Positions 18,881 to 58,116 of a stretch of DNA of 64,000 nucleotides are shown here, piece by piece. The stretch is taken from the NCBI GenBank assembly GCA_015055535.1, contig SVIA01000003.1, positions 16,098 to 80,097 on the forward strand. The letters are read 5' to 3'. The notes beneath the pieces are model-generated. The model was given only the letters and a program-made list of their open reading frames with translations, was not told the DNA's origin and did not search any database. The first letter of the stretch is position 1. Each line of letters begins with the position of its first letter. The stretch comes from Clostridiales bacterium (GTDB taxonomy: Bacteria > Bacillota > Clostridia > Christensenellales > UBA1242). A program made the translations under genes and the position numbers.

Positions 18881-19444
18881 ATGACAACACAAAAAGAAGT
18901 TTATGATAATTTAAAAGAAAATTTAGAAAAGGTTATTAACCATTTAAATGTAGAATATTCATCTATTAGAGCTGGTAGAGCAAATCCTAAAATTTTAGAT
19001 AAAGTATTAGTAGATTACTATGGTACTCCAACTCCACTTTATCAAATGGCAAACATAAGCGTTCCAGAACCAAGAATGCTAGTTATTTCTCTTTGGGATA
19101 CATCTATGATTAAAGATGTAGTTAAAGCTATAAATGAAGCAAATATTGGAATTAATCCAAACGATGACGGTAAAGTAATTCGTCTTGTTTTTCCAATACT
19201 TACTGAAGAAAGAAGAAAAGAATTAGTTAAACAAACTAAAAAGATTGCTGAAGAAGTTAAAGTTAGTGCAAGAAACGAAAGAAGAGATTCTTTAGATAAA
19301 ATTAAACAACTTAAAAAAGATAATTTAATCACTGAAGATATGGAAAAAGCAAGTGGAGTTGAAATTCAAAAAATTTTAGATGAATATATTGCTAAAATTG
19401 ATAAAATTGCCGGTGATAAAGAAAAAGAGGTTATGTCTGTTTAA
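18881..19444 (+). CDS. frr: Ribosome recycling factor
   Basis: Full-length Frr pattern (IRAGRANPKILD...LVFPILTEERRKELVK). Confidence 0.96.
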   Translation: MTTQKEVYDNLKENLEKVINHLNVEYSSIRAGRANPKILDKVLVDYYGTPTPLYQMANISVPEPRMLVISLWDTSMIKDVVKAINEANIGINPNDDGKVIRLVFPILTEERRKELVKQTKKIAEEVKVSARNERRDSLDKIKQLKKDNLITEDMEKASGVEIQKILDEYIAKIDKIAGDKEKEVMSV

Positions 19445-19632
19445 TGGATTTAAACTCATATATTGGTTGTTTAAAGGAAGATGTTATTAATTTTTTAGAA
19501 AGCCAAAACATTAAATATAAGTCTATTACAATTAGTGATAATAATTTTTATGATACTGAACTTTTTGTAAAATTTGAGTATATAAATAATATGTTAACGC
19601 TTTATTTTGATAGATTTAAACTAAACATTTAG
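19444..19632 (+). CDS. Hypothetical 62-aa protein, translationally coupled to frr
   Basis: ATG overlaps the frr stop (TAATG). No recognisable motif. Confidence 0.35.
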   Translation: MDLNSYIGCLKEDVINFLESQNIKYKSITISDNNFYDTELFVKFEYINNMLTLYFDRFKLNI

Positions 19633-19639
19633 GAGTATT

Positions 19640-20329
19640 ATGAAATTAAAAAAATTACCTAATCATATAGGCTTTATATTAGATGGAAACGGAAGATGGG
19701 CTAAAAAAAGAGGATTAAAACGAAATATTGGTCACAAATTTGGAGTAGAGGCTGTAAAAAAAACAGTTGAAGCTTTATTAGAAAAAAATATTAAGTATGC
19801 TTCATTTTTTGTATTTTCTACTGAAAATTTTAAAAGAAGCAAAGAAGAAGTAGATGGTATTTTTGATTTATTAAGACAATATTTAAAAAGTGATGTTAAA
19901 GAATATAAAGAAAAAAATGTAAGATTAATTGTTAGTGGAGATTTAACAAAAATTCCACAAGATTTACAAGAACAAATATTAAATAGTGTTAATGAAACAA
20001 AAAATAATGATAAGCTTATTGTTAATATTTGTTTAAACTATGGTGGTCAACAAGACATAATTCATGCTTGTAATAATATTATTAAAGATAAGCTAGATTT
20101 TGTTGATGAAACTGTATTTAAAAGTTATTTATACACTAAAGATATGCCACCTTTAGACTTTTTAATTAGAACTAGTGGTGAAATTAGAATTTCAAATTTT
20201 ATGTTATTTGATTTGGCTTATTCAGAACTTTATTTTACAAAAACATTATGGCCAGATTTTAACAAAAGAAAATTATTAAAAGCTTTAAAAGAATTTCAGT
20301 TTAGAAACAGACGTTTTGGAAAGGCTTAA
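19640..20329 (+). CDS. uppS: Undecaprenyl diphosphate synthase
   Basis: HIGFILDGNGRWAKKRG and IRTSGEIRISNF motifs. Confidence 0.95.
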   Translation: MKLKKLPNHIGFILDGNGRWAKKRGLKRNIGHKFGVEAVKKTVEALLEKNIKYASFFVFSTENFKRSKEEVDGIFDLLRQYLKSDVKEYKEKNVRLIVSGDLTKIPQDLQEQILNSVNETKNNDKLIVNICLNYGGQQDIIHACNNIIKDKLDFVDETVFKSYLYTKDMPPLDFLIRTSGEIRISNFMLFDLAYSELYFTKTLWPDFNKRKLLKALKEFQFRNRRFGKA

Positions 20330-20341
20330 TTTGGGGGATGT

Positions 20342-21277
20342 ATGAAGCAAAGGACAATAACTGCAGCAATTATAATGGCTGTTGTATTAGCAGCATTTTT
20401 ATTAAGAGAAGTTAATGGTTATATTTTTGATGCACTTTTATGTTTGGTAATAATAGTAAGTGCTAATGAAGTAGCCAGGGTTTTTAATAGAAGTGGAAGA
20501 GTAAATGATAGTACTTTAATTACTTTTTATCCAATTTTAAATTTTATATTGTTTTATTTTTGCTTAAAAAGTAACATGTATATAAAACATATATTACTAT
20601 TAAGTTTAGCACTAATTGTTGCGTTAATGTTAGTAGAAACTGTTATTGTTTTATGTACAAAAAAACAATTGTTAAAGCAATATGAAGAATATAAAACAAC
20701 TAAAACATTTGCAAGTTTTTGTGTTAATAAAGTGTTATTAACCGGATTTATTATGCTTTATCCAGCTATGATTTTAGGTTCATTGCACTTCTTTAATCAT
20801 ATATCAGACTTTACTTATTTAAATATTGCAACAAAATTTCCTGATTTAAATATAAGTTTATTTTTGCTTTTAATTACTATAGTTACTACTATTGCAAATG
20901 ATATTTTTGCTTATTTAATTGGAAGCGCTATAAAAGGGCCAAAATTATGTCCTTTAATTAGTCCAAACAAAACAATTTCAGGTGCTATTGGTGGACTACT
21001 TGGTGGTGTAGTTTTTGGTTTTGGTGTTTATGCAATATTTATGGCTCTTGGTTTAACTGAGGCTATGATACCAGCATATATTATTATAATTTATACAATT
21101 ATTGCGGGAATTATTAGTCAACTAGGAGATATTTTTGCTTCTATTATTAAAAGAAAAGCAAGAACAAAAGACTATAGTTCTATTTTTCCAGGTCATGGCG
21201 GATTTATGGATAGACTTGATGGAATAAGCTTTAATAGTATTTTTAGTTTAGTATTTTTTATGTTATTTATTTTCTAA
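20342..21277 (+). CDS. cdsA: Phosphatidate cytidylyltransferase
   Basis: Polytopic membrane protein with C-terminal signature SIIKRKARTKDYSSIFPGHGGFMDRLD. Confidence 0.88.
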   Translation: MKQRTITAAIIMAVVLAAFLLREVNGYIFDALLCLVIIVSANEVARVFNRSGRVNDSTLITFYPILNFILFYFCLKSNMYIKHILLLSLALIVALMLVETVIVLCTKKQLLKQYEEYKTTKTFASFCVNKVLLTGFIMLYPAMILGSLHFFNHISDFTYLNIATKFPDLNISLFLLLITIVTTIANDIFAYLIGSAIKGPKLCPLISPNKTISGAIGGLLGGVVFGFGVYAIFMALGLTEAMIPAYIIIIYTIIAGIISQLGDIFASIIKRKARTKDYSSIFPGHGGFMDRLDGISFNSIFSLVFFMLFIF

Positions 21278-21310
21278 TTTAGAATATAATTATATTATAT
21301 AGTTTATATT

Positions 21311-22336
21311 TTGGGGGATATTTTGATAGTTTTATATATTTTATTAGCAGTTTTAGTCCTACTTGTAATGGTAACTATTCATGAGTTTGGACATTATGTT
21401 GCTGGCAAAATGCTTGGTTTTAAAATTAATGAGTTTTCCGTTGGTTTTGGACCAGCTATTTTTTCAAAAAAGAAAAAAAACGGTGAAATTTTCTCTTTAA
21501 GGATAATTCCACTTGGTGGTTATTGTGCTTTTGATGGGGAAGATGAAAAGAGTGAAAGTGAACAAAGCTTTATGAAACAAAAGCCATGGAAAAGATTAAT
21601 TGTTTTATTCTTTGGTGCTTTTTTCAATTTTATTAGTGCAATTATTTTTTCTTTAATACTTCTTTGTACTGTGGGGTATGATGTTCCAAAAGTAACAAAA
21701 ATTGTTGATGTTAACGGAAATATTCAAACTGAACTTAAACAAGGAGATATTATAACACATATAGATGGTGTAAAAGTTAGTTTTATAAATGGAAACACTT
21801 TTAATTCATTAATAGCTAAATTTGATAGTGGCGAAACTTTTGAAACAACAGTTATTAGAGATGGTCAAAAACAAGTAATAAATCTTACAATGTTAGAAGA
21901 TACAGATGGTAAAAAATTATTAGGTATAAATATTAAAGCTACACCTTATTCTTTTGGTGAAAGTTTACTTTTATGTGTTCCATTTACTTGTGTTTTAGCT
22001 TGGCAAATTTTAGCCTTATTTGGTCAATTATTAACAGGTGGATTAGGTTTAGCTGGTCTTGGAGGACCAATTACAACGGTTACAACAATGGCAACACTTT
22101 CTATGCAAGGAATTAGCAACTTTTTAGTCCTTCTTCCATTAATAGCAGCAAATCTTGCAGTGTTTAATTTACTTCCGTTTCCCGCATTAGATGGTTCAAA
22201 AATGGTATTTACAACTATCGAATGGATAAGAGGAAAACCTATTAATCAAAAGGTTGAAAATTGGATTCATACTATTGGATTAATTTTATTGTTTGGTGTG
22301 GTTATAATTGCAGATTTATATCATTTAATTTTTTAG
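21311..22336 (+). CDS. rseP: RseP/RasP site-2 (RIP) zinc metalloprotease
   Basis: HEFGH motif in TM1, PDZ segment, LNLLPFPALDG motif. The start codon is uncertain (non-ATG). Confidence 0.85.
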   Translation: MGDILIVLYILLAVLVLLVMVTIHEFGHYVAGKMLGFKINEFSVGFGPAIFSKKKKNGEIFSLRIIPLGGYCAFDGEDEKSESEQSFMKQKPWKRLIVLFFGAFFNFISAIIFSLILLCTVGYDVPKVTKIVDVNGNIQTELKQGDIITHIDGVKVSFINGNTFNSLIAKFDSGETFETTVIRDGQKQVINLTMLEDTDGKKLLGINIKATPYSFGESLLLCVPFTCVLAWQILALFGQLLTGGLGLAGLGGPITTVTTMATLSMQGISNFLVLLPLIAANLAVFNLLPFPALDGSKMVFTTIEWIRGKPINQKVENWIHTIGLILLFGVVIIADLYHLIF

Positions 22337-22384
22337 GTGTCGATAACACTTTTTAACAATTTAACATTTTAAATATTATTTACT

Positions 22385-23899
22385 ATGGGAAAAGAAAAAA
22401 TTTTAGAGTATTTAAAAAATAACAATATTAATTATTTAAAATTAGGCAATGTTAGTTTTAGTAAAAGTGAAAATTTGCTTTGCCTAACTTTTTTATACGA
22501 AGAAAAAAATTATGATAAAATACAACAAGAAAAAGAAAATATTATTAATCAAGTTAAAAACTATGTGAATATAGATAAAATAGAATATTTGATAAAATTC
22601 AATAAAGCTTTTTTAGATGATGAACGTTTAAAAATTTTAATTAAAGATTTTATGAAAGTTAATCACAGGTTAAGTTTTTTCTCTTTAAAAAACATAGATG
22701 TATTTTTTATTAACAATACGTTTAATGTAACATTAAATACAAGTTTAACAGAAGAAGAAAATAAAAAAATAATACAAGAACTTTTAAAATTTTTGGAAGA
22801 TAAATATTTTTATAATTTTAAAATTGACTTTAAAAATGTTGATAATTCATATAATCTTTTACAAGAACACAAATCAGAAATATTAGACAATATTTCTGAT
22901 CCTATTAAAATAAATAAAATGAAGGTTAATAAAATAGAAAATATCATTGGCGAAATATTAGAAAATACTTGTTATCCTTATGAGTATTATAAAAGCGCTG
23001 AAGAAAATATTTATTTATGTGGACATTTGGAAAGTATTGAGGAAATTGAATTTACCAAAAAAGATGGAGAAACAAAAGGTATAAGATATGCTTTAAAAGT
23101 TAAATGTTTAGACAAATTATTTAATGCTACTATATTTCCAACAAAGAAAAATTTAGAAATTGTTAAAAATATTGAAAACAATATAGATATTATTATGAAT
23201 GGTAGTTTAGATAATTTTAATAATTTTTTAACATTTAAAGTTAAAAGTTTGGCAAAATGTGTTATAGAAGATTTTGTAAAGCCAGAGATTTCTATAAACA
23301 AAGTTTATGATAAATATAAGTTTGTAACCCCTACAAAATATGAAGAAATTACACAATTAAATTTGTTTGAAAATAAAATCAGCAAAGACTATTTAATGAA
23401 TAATGAGTTCGTTGTTTTTGATTTAGAAACTACAGGGTTAGATTATATGACCGAAAAAGTAACAGAAATTGGGGCAGTAAAAATTAAAAATGGAGTAATA
23501 ACTGAAGTTTTTTCAACTTTTATTAATCCAGAAAAAGACATAGATTTTGAAATTACAAAACTTACCGGTATTACTAATGAAATGGTTAAAAACGCTCCAA
23601 AACTTGAAAATGTTATACCAGATTTTTATAAATTTTGCAATGGTGCAATATTAGTTGCTCAAAATATTCAATTTGACTTTGGTTTTATAGATTATTATTC
23701 TAGACAAATAAATTATGTATTTGATCATGAGAAAAATGATACTATGATTTTAGCTAAGAAGAATATGTTTTTGAAAAATTATAAATTAAAAACAATAGCC
23801 GAAAGTTTAAATGTTCCATTGATTAATGCTCATAGGGCAATAAATGATGCATTAGCTACCGCTAAAGTTTTTATAAAACTTGTTGAAAAATATTATTAA
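22385..23899 (+). CDS. PolC-derived protein: PolC-like N-terminal region, OB fold and DEDDh 3'-5' exonuclease, with no PHP or polymerase domains
   Basis: Exo I FVVFDLETTGL, Exo II VAQNIQFDFGFI, Exo III HRAINDALATAKVF closely resemble the PolC proofreading insert. Residues ~205-300 fit the PolC OB-domain pattern. The gene occupies the polC slot between rseP and rimP. Confidence 0.75.
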   Translation: MGKEKILEYLKNNNINYLKLGNVSFSKSENLLCLTFLYEEKNYDKIQQEKENIINQVKNYVNIDKIEYLIKFNKAFLDDERLKILIKDFMKVNHRLSFFSLKNIDVFFINNTFNVTLNTSLTEEENKKIIQELLKFLEDKYFYNFKIDFKNVDNSYNLLQEHKSEILDNISDPIKINKMKVNKIENIIGEILENTCYPYEYYKSAEENIYLCGHLESIEEIEFTKKDGETKGIRYALKVKCLDKLFNATIFPTKKNLEIVKNIENNIDIIMNGSLDNFNNFLTFKVKSLAKCVIEDFVKPEISINKVYDKYKFVTPTKYEEITQLNLFENKISKDYLMNNEFVVFDLETTGLDYMTEKVTEIGAVKIKNGVITEVFSTFINPEKDIDFEITKLTGITNEMVKNAPKLENVIPDFYKFCNGAILVAQNIQFDFGFIDYYSRQINYVFDHEKNDTMILAKKNMFLKNYKLKTIAESLNVPLINAHRAINDALATAKVFIKLVEKYY

Positions 23900-24479: not shown

Positions 24480-25583
24480 ATGATTAGTAAAGATTTTTTT
24501 CAAGCATTAGAAGATTTTGAAACTGAAAGAAAAATTAGCAAAACAGAATTTATAAAAGCGTTAGAAACAGCATTAACTTCTGCTTACAAAAAACACATTG
24601 GTGAAGCAAAAATGGCAAGTGTTAAATTAAATCCTGAAAAACACACTATTAAAGTTTATAGTTATAAAGAAGTAAAAGAAGTTGTTGAAGATCCTGATAA
24701 AGAAATTAGTTTAGAAGATGCAAAACAAATTAAAAAATCTTATAAAATAGGTGATTTAGTAGAAAAAGAAGAAACACCTAAAGATTTTGGTAGAATTGCT
24801 GCTCAAACAGCTAAACAAGTTGTTATGCAAAAATTAAGAGAGTTAGAAAGAGGCAGAATGATTGCTGAAATAACTGAAAAAGAAGATGAATTAGTTACTG
24901 GTATTATTAGAAGAATTGAAGGTAAAAATGTTTTTGTTGAAATTGGAAGTAACAATTTAGAAGCTATACTTTCTGAACAAGACCAAATTAAAGGTGAAAA
25001 ATATTATATTAATTCTAAAATAAAAGTTTATGTTAAAAAAATTAAAGATGATAATAAATCTTCTTTAGTTCAAGTATCTAGAGCTAATACTGGGTTTGTT
25101 AAAAAATTATTTGAACTTGAAGTTCCAGAAATCCAAAATGGTGAAGTGGAAATTAAAGGTATTTCTAGAGAAGCGGGCGCTAGAACTAAAATAGCTGTTT
25201 TTGCTAAAAATGAAAATATTGATGCTGTTGGTGCTTGCGTAGGAAATCGTGGAATGAGAATTAACAATATTGTTAATGAATTAAATGGCGAAAAAGTTGA
25301 TATTATTTTATATAGTGATGATCCGCTTGAATATGTTGCAAGAGCTTTAAGTCCAGGAAAAGTAAATAGTGTTTGTTTTGTAGATGAAAAAACAACAAGA
25401 GCAATTGTTCCTAATGATAAATTATCTTTGGCTATTGGTGCTAACGGATTAAATGTAAGACTTGCAGCTAAACTTACTGGTATTAAGATTGATGTTAAAC
25501 CTGAAAGTTTTATTGAAGAAAAACCAGTTATTAACACTTTTGATGAAATTGAAACAGATTTAGATGATATGTTTAAGGATTAA
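24480..25583 (+). CDS. nusA: Transcription termination/antitermination factor NusA
   Basis: N-terminal domain, S1 and two KH domains (GACVGNRGMRINNIVNEL...LAIGANGLNVRLA). Confidence 0.96.
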   Translation: MISKDFFQALEDFETERKISKTEFIKALETALTSAYKKHIGEAKMASVKLNPEKHTIKVYSYKEVKEVVEDPDKEISLEDAKQIKKSYKIGDLVEKEETPKDFGRIAAQTAKQVVMQKLRELERGRMIAEITEKEDELVTGIIRRIEGKNVFVEIGSNNLEAILSEQDQIKGEKYYINSKIKVYVKKIKDDNKSSLVQVSRANTGFVKKLFELEVPEIQNGEVEIKGISREAGARTKIAVFAKNENIDAVGACVGNRGMRINNIVNELNGEKVDIILYSDDPLEYVARALSPGKVNSVCFVDEKTTRAIVPNDKLSLAIGANGLNVRLAAKLTGIKIDVKPESFIEEKPVINTFDEIETDLDDMFKD

Positions 25584-25584
25584 T

Positions 25585-25830
25585 ATGAAAAATATTAGAA
25601 CTTGTATCGCTTGTAGAAAAAAATTTGATAAAACCAATCACAATTTTATTAAAATTACAATAAACGAGAATAATTGCATAATTAATAATGATAATTCTGT
25701 GTTTGGTCGTAGCTGTTATATTTGTAAAGATGAAAATTGTATAAAAAAAGTTATAAAAAATAAAATTATTAATAAGGTATTAAAAAAACCAATAGATAAT
25801 AATATATATGAAAAATTAAATTTAATTTAA
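25585..25830 (+). CDS. ylxR: YlxR (DUF448) RNA-binding protein
   Basis: MKNIRTCIACRKK... Cys pattern. ATG 25585 preferred over the upstream track start at 25564. Confidence 0.8.
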   Translation: MKNIRTCIACRKKFDKTNHNFIKITINENNCIINNDNSVFGRSCYICKDENCIKKVIKNKIINKVLKKPIDNNIYEKLNLI

Positions 25831-38780: not shown

Positions 38781-38984
38781 ATGAGTTATGAAGAAAACAT
38801 TAAAAGACTACAAGAAATTGTGGAATTATTAGAAGGTGATAATCAAAGTTTAGACAATAATGTTAAACTGTATGAAGAAGCTGTTGAATTGATAAAAAAT
38901 AGTTATGAAGAAATAAAACTTGGTAAAGGAAAAATTGTAAAAATAACAGATAAACTTGAAGAGATTGACTTAGATTTGGATTAA
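38781..38984 (+). CDS. xseB: Exodeoxyribonuclease VII small subunit
   Basis: 67 aa, SYEENIKRLQEIVELLE pattern. Confidence 0.88.
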   Translation: MSYEENIKRLQEIVELLEGDNQSLDNNVKLYEEAVELIKNSYEEIKLGKGKIVKITDKLEEIDLDLD

Positions 38985-38997
38985 TTATATTTAATAC

Positions 38998-39026
38998 TTG
39001 CAAAAATATTGAAAATATGATATAAT
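38998..39026 (+). promoter_or_regulatory. Near-consensus sigma-A promoter driving the large ncRNA
   Basis: TTGCAA (38998-39003), exactly 17 nt, extended -10 TGaTATAAT (39018-39026). Predicted TSS ~39033-39035. Confidence 0.65.
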
Positions 39027-39033
39027 TAAAATG

Positions 39034-39545
39034 TTAGAGAAACTGTATCCTAGTCGCAAAAACTTTAATGAAAACGAATAATGGCGTTAGAGGGCATATC
39101 GATGAAGTTTCTGGTGTTTGCTTTGGTTGCCCAAATCGGGGTGGATGCTGGGAGTTAAGATTTTTGGGTGTGTTATAATGGCATATAATTTAAGCCCAAT
39201 TATCGTGGAGACCTAAAAGGTGGTATTTTTAATATATTACTAATTAGGATTAAACCTGCTATGTGGTGAATAAAAAGCTATGTACAGAGTAGCCTGTTTT
39301 GAGTGAATGGTGTGGATTATGTATGAAACAATGTTTGCAAAACAAACTAGTTAAATTATTTTTGTGTTAAGGAAAACTTCTAGGCAGAATATCTTTTGGG
39401 GATTATAGTGTAATCTAAGTGGCAATTCGGTATCAGTATTGGCGCAAGACTTAAACAGAAATGGCATATTCGGTGACGGTATGTGTTTTGTGGGGAAATC
39501 CGACCGAACCTAAGTTGCAAGGTTTACTCAAAAGATTTTCTCTAA
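39034..39545 (+). ncRNA. Large (~510 nt) structured non-coding RNA; candidate compact OLE (ornate, large, extremophilic) RNA
   Basis: No ORF in the supplied six-frame track on either strand. Visibly G+C-enriched relative to the flanks. Terminal helix TTAGAGAAA (39034-42) / TTTCTCTAA (39537-45) stacks on ATCTTTTG (39391-98) / CAAAAGAT (39529-36). Internal helices GGGCA (39092-96) / TGCCC (39128-32) and TTCGGT (39469-74) / ACCGAA (39503-08). Own promoter. Position nusB-xseA-xseB-[RNA]-small TM protein-...-argR-recN matches the published OLE/oapA context. Confidence is high that this is a structured RNA and lower that it is OLE. Confidence 0.65.
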
Positions 39546-39563
39546 TTTTTATTTAGGAGACGA

Positions 39564-40133
39564 ATGAAAGATAATAAAGAAAAATCCAAGAATAAAAAAA
39601 TAAAAATTGCTTGGTCTTATCCATTAAAGGTGCTTTTACTAACACTTGTAATGAGTTTTGTTTTAAATATTTCTAGTGAAGCGTTGCTTTCGAGTGTTGG
39701 TTTAATTTTATCTGTAATAATATTGTTAATATTTGTTACAATATCTATTGTTTTTGATATGATAGGGGTAGCGGTTACAGCTGGTAATATTGAACCGTTT
39801 TTGGCAAGAGCTTCTAAAAAAGAAAGAGGAGCTAAAGAAAGTATTAAACTAATTAAGAATGCGGAAAAAATCTCAAGCTTTTGTTGTGATATAGTTGGTG
39901 ATAGTTGTGGAATACTTACTGGAGCAATGGGAGCAAGTATTGCAATACAAATTTATTCTGCTACTGGAGATTTCATATCTATATTAGTGGCGGCCTTGGT
40001 CAGTAGCTTGGTTGCATCAATAACAGTTTTTGGAAAAGCTTTGTGTAAGGGAGTAGCTGTTAATAACTCTGATATTATAATTTTAAAAGTTGGAAAAATT
40101 TTAAGTTTTTTTCATTTTAAAAGAAAAAAATAA
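39564..40133 (+). CDS. Small polytopic membrane protein, OapA-like (OLE-associated protein) by position
   Basis: ATG 18 nt after the ncRNA 3' helix, RBS AGGAGA. 189 aa with a Lys-rich N-terminus and ~4 hydrophobic helices. DIVGD (D109-x3-D113) lies in a helix. Confidence 0.5.
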   Translation: MKDNKEKSKNKKIKIAWSYPLKVLLLTLVMSFVLNISSEALLSSVGLILSVIILLIFVTISIVFDMIGVAVTAGNIEPFLARASKKERGAKESIKLIKNAEKISSFCCDIVGDSCGILTGAMGASIAIQIYSATGDFISILVAALVSSLVASITVFGKALCKGVAVNNSDIIILKVGKILSFFHFKRKK

Positions 40134-40154: not shown

Positions 40155-40185
40155 AAGAGGAAAGTGATTTTTCCTCTTTTTTTTG
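40155..40185 (+). terminator. Rho-independent terminator ending the ncRNA/oapA-like unit
   Basis: AAGAGGAAA-GTGATT-TTTCCTCTT followed by TTTTTTT. Confidence 0.75.
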
Positions 40186-46686: not shown

Positions 46687-47739
46687 TTAATCATCATCTT
46701 TTCTTAATTTTACTCCAGTCAATGCATTTCTTCTTGTGTTTTCACTGGTTGCTGCGTAATGTTTTTTGGTTGTATTTACATCTTTATGACCTAAAACTTC
46801 TGCTACAACATAAATATCTTTTGTTTCGTTGTATAAATTTGTACCAAAAGTAGATCGAAGTTTGTGTGGTGTAATTTTCTTTAAAGGTGTTATTATTTTG
46901 GCATATTTTTTTACCAAATTTTCTACACTTCTAACATTAATTCTTTTATTTTGAAGGGAAGTAAAGAAAGGATCATCTTCTTCTAATTCTTTATTTTTTT
47001 CTTTTTTAAAATTTAAATATTTAATAAGAGCGTCTTTAACTTCTTCTGAATAGAAAAGAATCATTCGATTTCCACCTTTTCTTGTGACTACAAAGCTATT
47101 ATCTTCAAAATTAAAGTCATTTATATTTAATCCTACAAGTTCGCTTATACGAATACCTGTTCCTAAAAAAAGACTTAGCATTGCAAAATCACGTTCTTTT
47201 GTTTTTTCAAAAAAAGCTCGTTGATTTTTTGTAAAACCTTCGCCAGTTTCGGCTAAATTTAAAATGTTTACTACTTCATTTATATCTAATCTTATTATTT
47301 CTTTCTCATTAATTTTGGGAATATCAACTTTTGTTGAAACATTTTCTAAAATCCTATCTTTTTTATATAAATAAGCAAAGAAAGTTCTTAAACTAGATAG
47401 TTTTCTTGCTTTTGTTTTGTTTGTGTTAGAATGAGATTGATTATTATCGTCTACATAATAAGTTAAATAATCTAAATATAGCTCTAAATGAGTTGCTGTT
47501 AATTTGTTTAAGTCGGCAAGTGTTAATTCTTTTATTTTTTTATTGTTAAATTCATAAATTTCTTTAACTAAAAAAGAAAAGAATACCTTTAAATCTCTAG
47601 CGTAATTAACTTTTGTTAACATACTTGTTTTACTATCAATTCCAAGAAAAAATTCTTCACAAAAAAAAGGAAGTTCGCTTTTAATTTTTTTTAAAAGGAC
47701 GGCATTTTTATTATTTCTATCTGTAAAATAATTACTCAT
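46687..47739 (-). CDS. Tyrosine site-specific recombinase (Xer/phage-integrase family), 350 aa
   Basis: SAM-like N-domain (TKVNYARDLKVFFSFL). Catalytic residues ...GTGIRISEL..., HKLRSTFGT, LGHKDVNTTKKHY. No Shine-Dalgarno before the ATG. Extended -10 (rc TGATATAAT, 47746-54) is placed so the transcript would be leaderless. Confidence 0.85.
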   Translation of the reverse strand: MSNYFTDRNNKNAVLLKKIKSELPFFCEEFFLGIDSKTSMLTKVNYARDLKVFFSFLVKEIYEFNNKKIKELTLADLNKLTATHLELYLDYLTYYVDDNNQSHSNTNKTKARKLSSLRTFFAYLYKKDRILENVSTKVDIPKINEKEIIRLDINEVVNILNLAETGEGFTKNQRAFFEKTKERDFAMLSLFLGTGIRISELVGLNINDFNFEDNSFVVTRKGGNRMILFYSEEVKDALIKYLNFKKEKNKELEEDDPFFTSLQNKRINVRSVENLVKKYAKIITPLKKITPHKLRSTFGTNLYNETKDIYVVAEVLGHKDVNTTKKHYAATSENTRRNALTGVKLRKDDD

Positions 47740-58040: not shown

Positions 58041-58116
58041 TGGCAGGCGAAGTAGGACTCGAACCCACGACCAACGGTTTTGGAGACCGCGACTCTACCA
58101 ACTGAGCTATTCGCCT
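58041..58116 (-). tRNA. trnW: tRNA-Trp (anticodon CCA), CCA end encoded
   Basis: Minus strand AGGCGAA-TA-GCTC-AGTTGGTA-GAGT-C-GCGGT-CTCCAAA-ACCGT-TGGTC-GTGGG-TTCGAGT-CCTAC-TTCGCCT-G-CCA folds by hand as a 76-nt cloverleaf. Confidence 0.9.

Follow-up and report, generated by a model that had tools for sequence, protein, structure and literature searches.

The 64-kb stretch of Clostridiales DNA analysed here (contig SVIA01000003.1, hereafter the window) contains a 579-bp gap that separates xseB (38781-38984) from the next coding sequence, which begins at 39564, and the question raised by this locus is whether the gap encodes a compact variant of OLE RNA or a new large noncoding RNA in the position that OLE commonly takes. 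The original prediction had read the region as the OLE locus and proposed a search with the Rfam OLE model, RF01071. When this search was run, a match was obtained at 39021-39558 on the plus strand with 309.2 bits against a gathering threshold of 50 (E = 4.2e-87), spanning model positions 1-616 of 616 and thus untruncated. Counted from P1 to P1, the OLE RNA gene occupies 39034-39545 on the plus strand and comprises 512 nt. The assignment to the OLE locus is borne out by this score together with the gene order, spoIIIAH-asp23-nusB-xseA-xseB-OLE-oapA-argR-recN-spoIVB-spo0A, which annotation of the flanking genes showed to be as foreseen, and by the presence of oapA directly 3' of the RNA, with its ATG 18 nt past the end of P1. 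In 78 of 83 loci, the OapA homologue has OLE upstream of it. OLE hosts are anaerobic or extremophilic Bacillota, and the window accordingly carries the spoIIIA operon, spoIVB and spo0A; a protein identical to the window OapA is recorded at NCBI as 'MAG: Clostridiales bacterium' (MAG, metagenome-assembled genome), and an identical oapA was assembled from samples that include JGI 3300024270 and ENA ERZ27248436. The gap is almost certainly occupied by a functional OLE RNA gene in reduced form, paired with its obligate partner gene oapA.

The RNA was compared with sequences from 80 OapA-linked loci of reference genomes, 17 further distinct OLEs from metagenomes and nine loci of close relatives. 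Segment lengths between conserved blocks were measured on a MAFFT alignment, and helices were named after Lyon & Breaker 2025 (PMC12265935), the name P2 being inferred from the same work. Threading the RF01071 consensus onto the window kept 127 of its 141 pairs. Across 91 unique sequences, the 136 pairs of the window were canonical in 90% of cases as compared to 39-46% in controls in which the 3' partners had been slid, and both partners had changed in 97 of the 136 pairs, whereas the slid controls gave 57-64. Covariation thus supports the conserved OLE structure over the 136 pairs, and separate support was obtained for P2, P3 and P3.1, three helices that are absent from the Rfam consensus and have been described in the literature.

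The two ends of the RNA had been proposed to pair (39034-39042 with 39537-39545), and this pairing is OLE helix P1, in which TTAGAGAAA and TTTCTCTAA form a perfect 9-bp duplex that is canonical at 84% in the 91 sequences; seven of its nine pairs change on both sides, and the window version is compensatory relative to the consensus GUGGUG/CACCAC. The second long-range helix that had been drawn (39391-39398 with 39529-39536) is a perfect 8-bp duplex corresponding to P12, which is 91% canonical and has changes on both sides in 11 of 11 pairs, and both P1 and P12 are among the best-supported helices of the covariation test. P2 (CCUAG at 39049-39053 with CUAGG at 39380-39384) was 100% canonical in 89 sequences, its closing pair alternating between U-A, C-G and U-G. 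The 5' strands of P3 (39055-39062 with 39359-39366, 8 bp) and P3.1 (39064-39069 with 39350-39355, 6 bp) together occupy 39055-39069, and published work has suggested that the stem which they form spans the membrane. As P3.1 lies in a poorly aligned region, where column-wise covariation was ambiguous, an alignment-free duplex test was used instead; in 89 sequences this gave a median z of -3.3, with a free energy of -13.2 kcal/mol for each sequence paired with its own partner versus -4.1 kcal/mol for mismatched partners, and a z of -2.3 for the window.

The remaining core elements, all on the plus strand, follow in the established order. The P4 hairpin (39073-39088, loop AAUAAUG) is succeeded by the highly conserved block GGGCAUAUCGAUGAAGU, whose AUCGAU palindrome (39098-39103) probably corresponds to the published P4a-proximal OapA site. 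P5/P5.1 is a long hairpin of 20 bp (39108-39154) with the loop GCCCA kept, 93% canonical, with changes on both sides in 14 of the 20 pairs, and it is also present in the minimum free energy fold. The P6/P6.1 hairpin (39159-39204), supported by alignment and covariation, keeps the loop AAUGGCAU, which is complementary to the P5.1 loop (UGCC/GGCA); in published work these two loops kiss in trans (PMC12265935). The GUUAAG block (39154-39159) and J6/7 (39204-39211, CGUGGAGA), which represent the published kink-turn region around P5/P6 and the OapC site, are conserved in the window at the level of sequence. P7 is present in a short form (39212-39248, 89% canonical), P8 is found at 39256-39287 (89% canonical, seven pairs changing on both sides), P9 is represented by its base helices only (39296-39347), with GAU-UAUGUA-UGAAAC where the distal arch is missing, and the P10 hairpin AAGGAAAACUU (39369-39379) is 99% canonical. 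The 3' domain (39391-39536) comprises P12 (39391-39400 with 39527-39536), P12.1 (39409-39413 with 39515-39519), P12.2 (39426-39431 with 39503-39508) and P14/P14.1 (39443-39492), which are 89-99% canonical, as well as the conserved GGGGAAAUCC block and the GUGA loop of P14.1. Every core helix (P1-P10, P12-P12.2 and P14/P14.1) is kept with compensatory changes.

The coding sequence downstream (39564-40133, plus strand) encodes a membrane protein of 189 aa with the motif DIVGD at residues 109-113, which corresponds to the DxxxD motif named as the hallmark of OapA (PMC11332333); D109, G112 and D113 were invariant in 24 OapA homologues. The product had been described as a small protein with four transmembrane segments, and four long helices (residues 18-44, 47-73, 100-131 and 136-167) are indeed found in its AlphaFold2 model (predicted local distance difference test score 81), where a crude Kyte-Doolittle scan marks only residues 15-76 and 128-161. 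The Pfam CNNM family (PF01595) scored 28.2 bits, just below the cutoff of 28.4, and the best Foldseek matches of the model were MtCorB (7M1T/7M1U) and CorC (7CFF), with query-normalised TM-scores of 0.50-0.59; the published structural matches of Halalkalibacterium halodurans OapA are likewise CNNM-type Mg2+ transporters. The protein is identified as OapA by its DxxxD motif, its four long helices and its predicted CNNM/CorB-like fold. With the CNNM-domain Mg2+ transporters MpfA, CorB and CorC it shares the four long helices, the weak PF01595 match and the MtCorB/CorC-like fold, but whereas MpfA-type transporters carry CBS and CorC/HlyC domains, the window protein, like other OapA proteins, has neither, and no additional domains were found in its 189 aa. 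Regarding the other known partners, no match to KOW or L7Ae domains was obtained among the open reading frames (ORFs) scanned in the window, and no L7Ae-family gene (ylxQ or OapC-like) lies between nusA/ylxR and infB. This empty L7Ae slot fits the reported absence of OapC in hosts of reduced OLE variants, without being proof of it. An 88-aa Cys-rich ORF (25564-25830) stands alone between nusA and infB and is a putative ylxR by position.

A near-perfect promoter had been noted ahead of the RNA. The site (38998-39026) is of the sigma-70 type, with the -35 box TTGCAA at 38998-39003, a 17-nt spacer and the extended -10 box TGaTATAAT at 39018-39026, giving 10 of 12 matches in addition to the TG extension. 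The -35 (TTGCAt) and TGnTATAAT boxes hold their position in near and far relatives, and it is this positional conservation, and not the motif match itself, that supports the site and, with it, an OLE-oapA unit with its own promoter. Transcription is predicted to start 1-2 nt ahead of P1. The terminator scan found no site between OLE and oapA, and the strong terminator claimed at 40155-40185 is present as a 10-bp stem (40155-40178) followed by a T-run, in a region in which three terminator-like sites were found versus 0.3 expected. The Shine-Dalgarno sequence of oapA, AGGAG, lies at 39555-39559, so the distance from the end of P1 to this site is 9 nt; the 18 nt originally given for it is the distance to the ATG at 39564. 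OLE and oapA would hence be transcribed from their own extended -10 promoter, on a transcript that starts at or next to P1, reads through oapA and ends at the terminator at 40155-40185. In H. halodurans, by comparison, OLE is made in a long polycistronic transcript, whereas the window OLE appears to have its own promoter.

Such an arrangement would also suit an RNA that serves mainly as a cis-acting 5' leader controlling oapA expression, rather than as a trans-acting component of a ribonucleoprotein: the promoter is directly upstream, no terminator precedes oapA, the Shine-Dalgarno sequence follows 9 nt after the end of P1, and the deletion that removed OLE from a sister lineage (see below) also took the -10 box and the Shine-Dalgarno sequence. 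However, OLE of H. halodurans is abundant, localised to the membrane and bound by OapA, OapB and OapC, the conserved protein- and RNA-contact blocks are kept in the window OLE, and its sequence gives no hint of an expression platform that would sequester the Shine-Dalgarno sequence. A predominantly regulatory leader is therefore improbable, although cis and trans roles are not mutually exclusive.

What sets this RNA apart is its size. It had been described as shorter than known examples, and at 512 nt it is the shortest of the 72 complete OLEs collected, the others measuring 536-650 nt with a median of 589 nt. The length of about 600 nt that is typical of OLE is thus not reached, which makes the RNA a size variant without placing it outside the family. 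We considered calling it the shortest OLE known and do not claim this, since OapA relatives of the window are over-represented in the sample and published variant 2 is not part of it.

Missing, first of all, is the distal arch of P9, about 45-50 nt long. A segment of 48 nt in the model is reduced to 2 nt, and the distal P9 segment measures 14 nt in the window versus 55-73 nt in nearly all other sequences (58-73 nt in the longest forms). The palindromic kissing loop at the tip of the arch is consequently absent as well. In published work this tip forms the symmetric kissing loop of dimer bridge B3/centre 4 (PMC12265935), and in nearly every other OLE examined it carries a palindromic GGCC, CCGG, GCGC, GUAC, GAUC or AGCU. 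Among 69 arch-bearing sequences, the first mid-arch palindrome was GGCC in 31, CCGG in 15, GUAC in seven, GCGC and GAUC in four each, and AGCU and CGCG in two each; Kretsch et al. 2025 quoted GGCC, GAUC and AGCU as evidence for an intermolecular kissing loop, and GUAC and GCGC enlarge that set.

Several smaller elements are reduced or missing too. P13 (39433-39442) is vestigial, with three base pairs and the loop GUAU, and both the GNRA tetraloop and the bulged nucleotide are gone; as binding of OapB needs the P13 GNRA tetraloop and the single-nucleotide bulge (PMC7936274), the OapB site is absent. The P11 hairpin, found after P10 in many OLEs, is absent from the window OLE. The P7 segment measures 37 nt versus 58-66 nt in most OLEs of the longest class (611-650 nt), and the P8 segment 36 nt versus 36-54 nt in the longest forms. 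In P4, the loop AAUAAUG replaces the conserved A-rich CUAAAAAU loop, which forms an A-A dimer centre (centre 1) in models from cryo-electron microscopy (cryo-EM; PMC12265935); the P4 motif UAAAAN is found in 65 of 72 sequences with P13 versus one of 19 P13-less sequences. The expectation that this RNA would reveal dispensable OLE substructures is borne out, as the P9 arch, the P13 hairpin, P11 and the A-rich P4 loop are gone and the core helices kept.

The reduction is not confined to the window. All relatives whose OapA is at least 67% identical (L204-L210 and L004) are arch-less and have the same synteny, whereas L212, with 51% OapA identity, has a full P9 arch with a GGCC tip, and the loss of the arch is thus a shared derived trait of a multi-species clade. 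The arch-less form was found in the window lineage and in at least seven other distinct OapA lineages (L004, L204-L206 and L208-L210). The arch has also been lost independently in L027 and, among the metagenomic sequences, in several lineages of 523-556 nt in which a P13-like hairpin is still present. A scan of metagenomes with the pattern TTGAGTG-N12-42-TGAAAY-N5-8-TGCAAAA for arch-less OLEs, which proved too loose in that only 26 of the 120 loci among the matches listed were real OLE, shows that arch loss recurs and gives no frequency for it. Most P13-less OLEs sampled (558-594 nt) have kept the P9 arch in full, palindromic tip included.

No other DNA at the locus is as conserved within the clade as OLE, which shows 80-92% nucleotide identity as compared to 62-77% for xseA, oapA and nusB, 78-89% for argR, and 41-71% when only third codon positions in these neighbours are counted. 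Substitutions at paired sites kept the pairing in 113 cases and broke it in 32; in 49 of the pairs kept, both bases had changed. Strong purifying selection thus acts on the compact OLE, which is no relic.

A sister lineage has an arrangement without OLE (L211, 3766-4001; L213-L216, 9766-10001; L217, 8906-9141). Its synteny is identical, with spoIIIA, asp23, nusB, xseA, xseB, oapA, argR, recN, spoIVB and spo0A, its OapA is 71% identical to the window OapA, and just 28 nt separate the xseB stop from the oapA ATG. OLE was undetected within 10 kb on either side (nhmmer, E <= 1). The arrangement is present in five assemblies from different samples, which are 99.0-100% identical and differ by real single-nucleotide polymorphisms; one genome of the lineage contains ENA ERZ15610027 NODE_170. 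The deletion seems to run from just past the OLE -35 box to the oapA ATG, taking the -10 box, OLE and the Shine-Dalgarno sequence. As to a faster evolution of OapA in this lineage, its identity to outgroups (47.9-48.6%, versus 47-56% in the others) is just slightly lower, which is not decisive.

The outright deletion in the sister lineage, together with the loss of several peripheral elements from the window OLE and the gene loss that is typical of reduced genomes, would be in line with a decaying OLE that is no longer functional and is being lost piece by piece until none of it remains. A sequence in decay is, however, not expected to be 80-92% identical where third codon positions of its neighbours are at 41-71%, and the counts of kept, broken and doubly changed pairs largely refute decay; moreover, the universally conserved sequence blocks are intact, and the arch-less form has persisted through much divergence, in the window and the other OapA lineages named above. 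We regard a non-functional relic as very unlikely. A new large structured RNA unrelated to OLE, in the OLE slot by chance, has only the shorter length in its favour and is ruled out by the full-length RF01071 match about 260 bits above threshold, the conserved blocks also aligning base for base with those of 90 other OLEs, which leaves this explanation with practically no probability.

Some observations nevertheless weigh against a functional OLE gene in reduced form. What OLE does biochemically has yet to be established even in model organisms, and as the host is uncultured, transcription and RNA ends are inferred from sequence only. Promoter-like matches occur at chance frequency in such AT-rich DNA (10 found, 10.9 expected). 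The thermodynamic signal is weak, with a minimum free energy of -127.1 kcal/mol, a z of -1.75 and six of 100 shuffles folding as well (minus-strand fold, z = -1.11); because folding stability alone is weak, the case rests on homology and covariation. Finally, the sister lineage kept oapA and lost OLE, which may mean that the constraint on OLE is weakening in this group or that OapA works without OLE.

If the RNA acts as OLE does in H. halodurans and Clostridium, it would fold into domain 1 (P3-P9) and domain 2 (P1, P2 and P10-P15), joined by P3/P3.1, and would bind OapA dimers at the membrane. By the same analogy, the resulting particle would help the cell to withstand, among other stresses, Mg2+, alcohols, cold and poor carbon sources. 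The particle of this lineage would work without the OapB docking site, and any remaining dimerisation would probably rest mainly on the retained kissing loops of P5.1 and P6.1.

Reduced OLEs have been described before. Fernando & Breaker 2024 (mSphere, PMC11332333) reported 2,822 OLE RNAs in Bacillota from a search of GTDB and distinguished two variants. In variant 1, P7, P8 and P9 are shortened and the OapB site is often missing; it is commonest in TANB77, a gut order of uncultured bacteria with reduced genomes from which OapB and OapC are largely absent, and it occurs in many clades (PMC11332333). Variant 2 has neither P7 nor P8 and is found mostly in RF39 (PMC11332333). By its sequence, the window OLE conforms to the structural definition of variant 1 and not to that of variant 2. 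It is like variant 1 in its short P7, P8 and P9, in the missing P13 nucleotides for OapB and in the kept conserved OLE nucleotides, and the hosts of both are uncultured low-GC gut Clostridia (in our case a metagenome-assembled genome); the window clade has additionally lost the whole P9 arch and P11, down to 512 nt. Variant 1 scored 310-390 bits under the authors' own covariance model (PMC11332333), to which the 309.2 bits of the window, obtained with the Rfam model, are not comparable. One P13-less relative, Candidatus Caccopulliclostridium, belongs to the order 4C28d-15, which agrees with the occurrence of variant 1 in many clades (PMC11332333). Variant 2 resembles the window OLE in being a reduced OLE of an uncultured gut lineage with a small genome, but the window OLE has both P7 and P8, each 89% canonical.

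Compared with full-length OLEs (about 610 nt in H. halodurans and 577 nt in C. acetobutylicum), the window OLE is about 65-100 nt shorter. The two forms share the core helices P1-P10, P12-P12.2 and P14/P14.1, the conserved blocks, oapA immediately 3', and the nusB-xseA-xseB and argR-recN neighbourhood. In contrast, the window OLE lacks the P13 GNRA hairpin, P11 and the A-rich P4 loop of the full-length form as well as the P9 arch, whose kissing loop is one of four dimer centres, and ispA and dxs are not adjacent. Loss of P7 and P8 was explained by Lyon & Breaker 2025 as tolerated since these stems are not dimer contacts (PMC12265935); that work does not take up a missing P9 centre or A-rich P4 loop, which may be covered by the 'shorter P9' of the published variant. 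As a reduced OLE class has already been published and Rfam identifies the window OLE outright, the annotation is routine and its novelty low. What the window copy adds, judged from its sequence, is a matter of degree, in that this clade has lost the P9 arch and its kissing loop too.

The main value of the locus lies in a naturally minimised OLE and in its place in an apparent reductive series, and its interest is modest. Tentatively, and with the odds somewhat against it, the OLEs of uncultured gut Clostridia may form a series from arch-bearing P13-less forms (for example L212 and L009) through the 512-nt arch-less clade under purifying selection to the lineage in which OLE has been deleted and oapA is intact. 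If this series is true and unreported, OLE function would require neither the OapB site nor two of the four dimer centres seen in cryo-EM, and OapA could persist without an adjacent OLE, contrary to the statement that OLE and OapA 'might never appear independently' (PMC11332333). OLE is among the largest conserved bacterial RNAs of unknown biochemical function, and natural minimal versions help to define its essentials. The 512-nt OLE keeps the P3/P3.1 stem, the P5.1 and P6.1 kissing loops, the kink-turn blocks and the P12-P14 core; it offers structural biologists a smaller natural construct and lets one test which share of the dimer interface in published models is needed.

The original prediction had also remarked that both flanking isoprenoid genes were gone, and neither ispA nor dxs is present at the OLE locus of the window. 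Among loci with a full P13, 18 have IspA encoded directly upstream and 25 have Dxs encoded directly downstream, whereas at P13-less loci ispA and dxs are never adjacent and ArgR follows oapA in seven of 12. The missing isoprenoid neighbours are thus a trait of the whole P13-less group and not peculiar to the window genome. Elsewhere in the window (18881-23899), cdsA (20342-21277) is followed directly by the gene for the M50 protease RseP (21311-22336), with no dxr in between; uppS is present. The usual block in Firmicutes is frr-uppS-cdsA-dxr-rseP. The methylerythritol phosphate pathway of isoprenoid synthesis may be reduced or relocated in this genome, of which the window covers 64 kb. After rseP, proS and polC usually follow, and this slot is taken here by a 504-aa ORF (22385-23899) with an RNase_T/DnaQ-type exonuclease domain confined to the C-terminus (residues 343-496) and an N-terminal part of 340 aa without a Pfam match.

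With respect to coding potential, the gap between xseB and oapA had been described as free of ORFs. This holds in so far as no convincing ORF was found, but a mechanically called 46-aa ORF with a TTG start does sit there on the minus strand (39380-39520), the only one of at least 40 aa that lies wholly within the gap; a second 46-aa minus-strand ORF (38863-39003) overlaps just its first 19 bp. The higher G+C content reported for the gap was found as well, with 33-34% in the OLE region versus 17-29% in most flanking windows, though oapA is higher still, at 36%. In two cases, public gene calls extend into OLE: the N-terminal extension of P0035 (…NLWGNPTEPKLQGLL…) is the translated conserved OLE 3' domain, and a 36-aa 'gene' has been called inside OLE on contig L001 (314-424). 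Both are annotation artefacts that arise where OLE is left unmasked. Further along the window, a tyrosine recombinase with Phage_integrase and SAM-like N-terminal domains is encoded at 46687-47739 on the minus strand, downstream of the gene for PBP5, and the single tRNA gene of the window lies at 58044-58116 on the minus strand.

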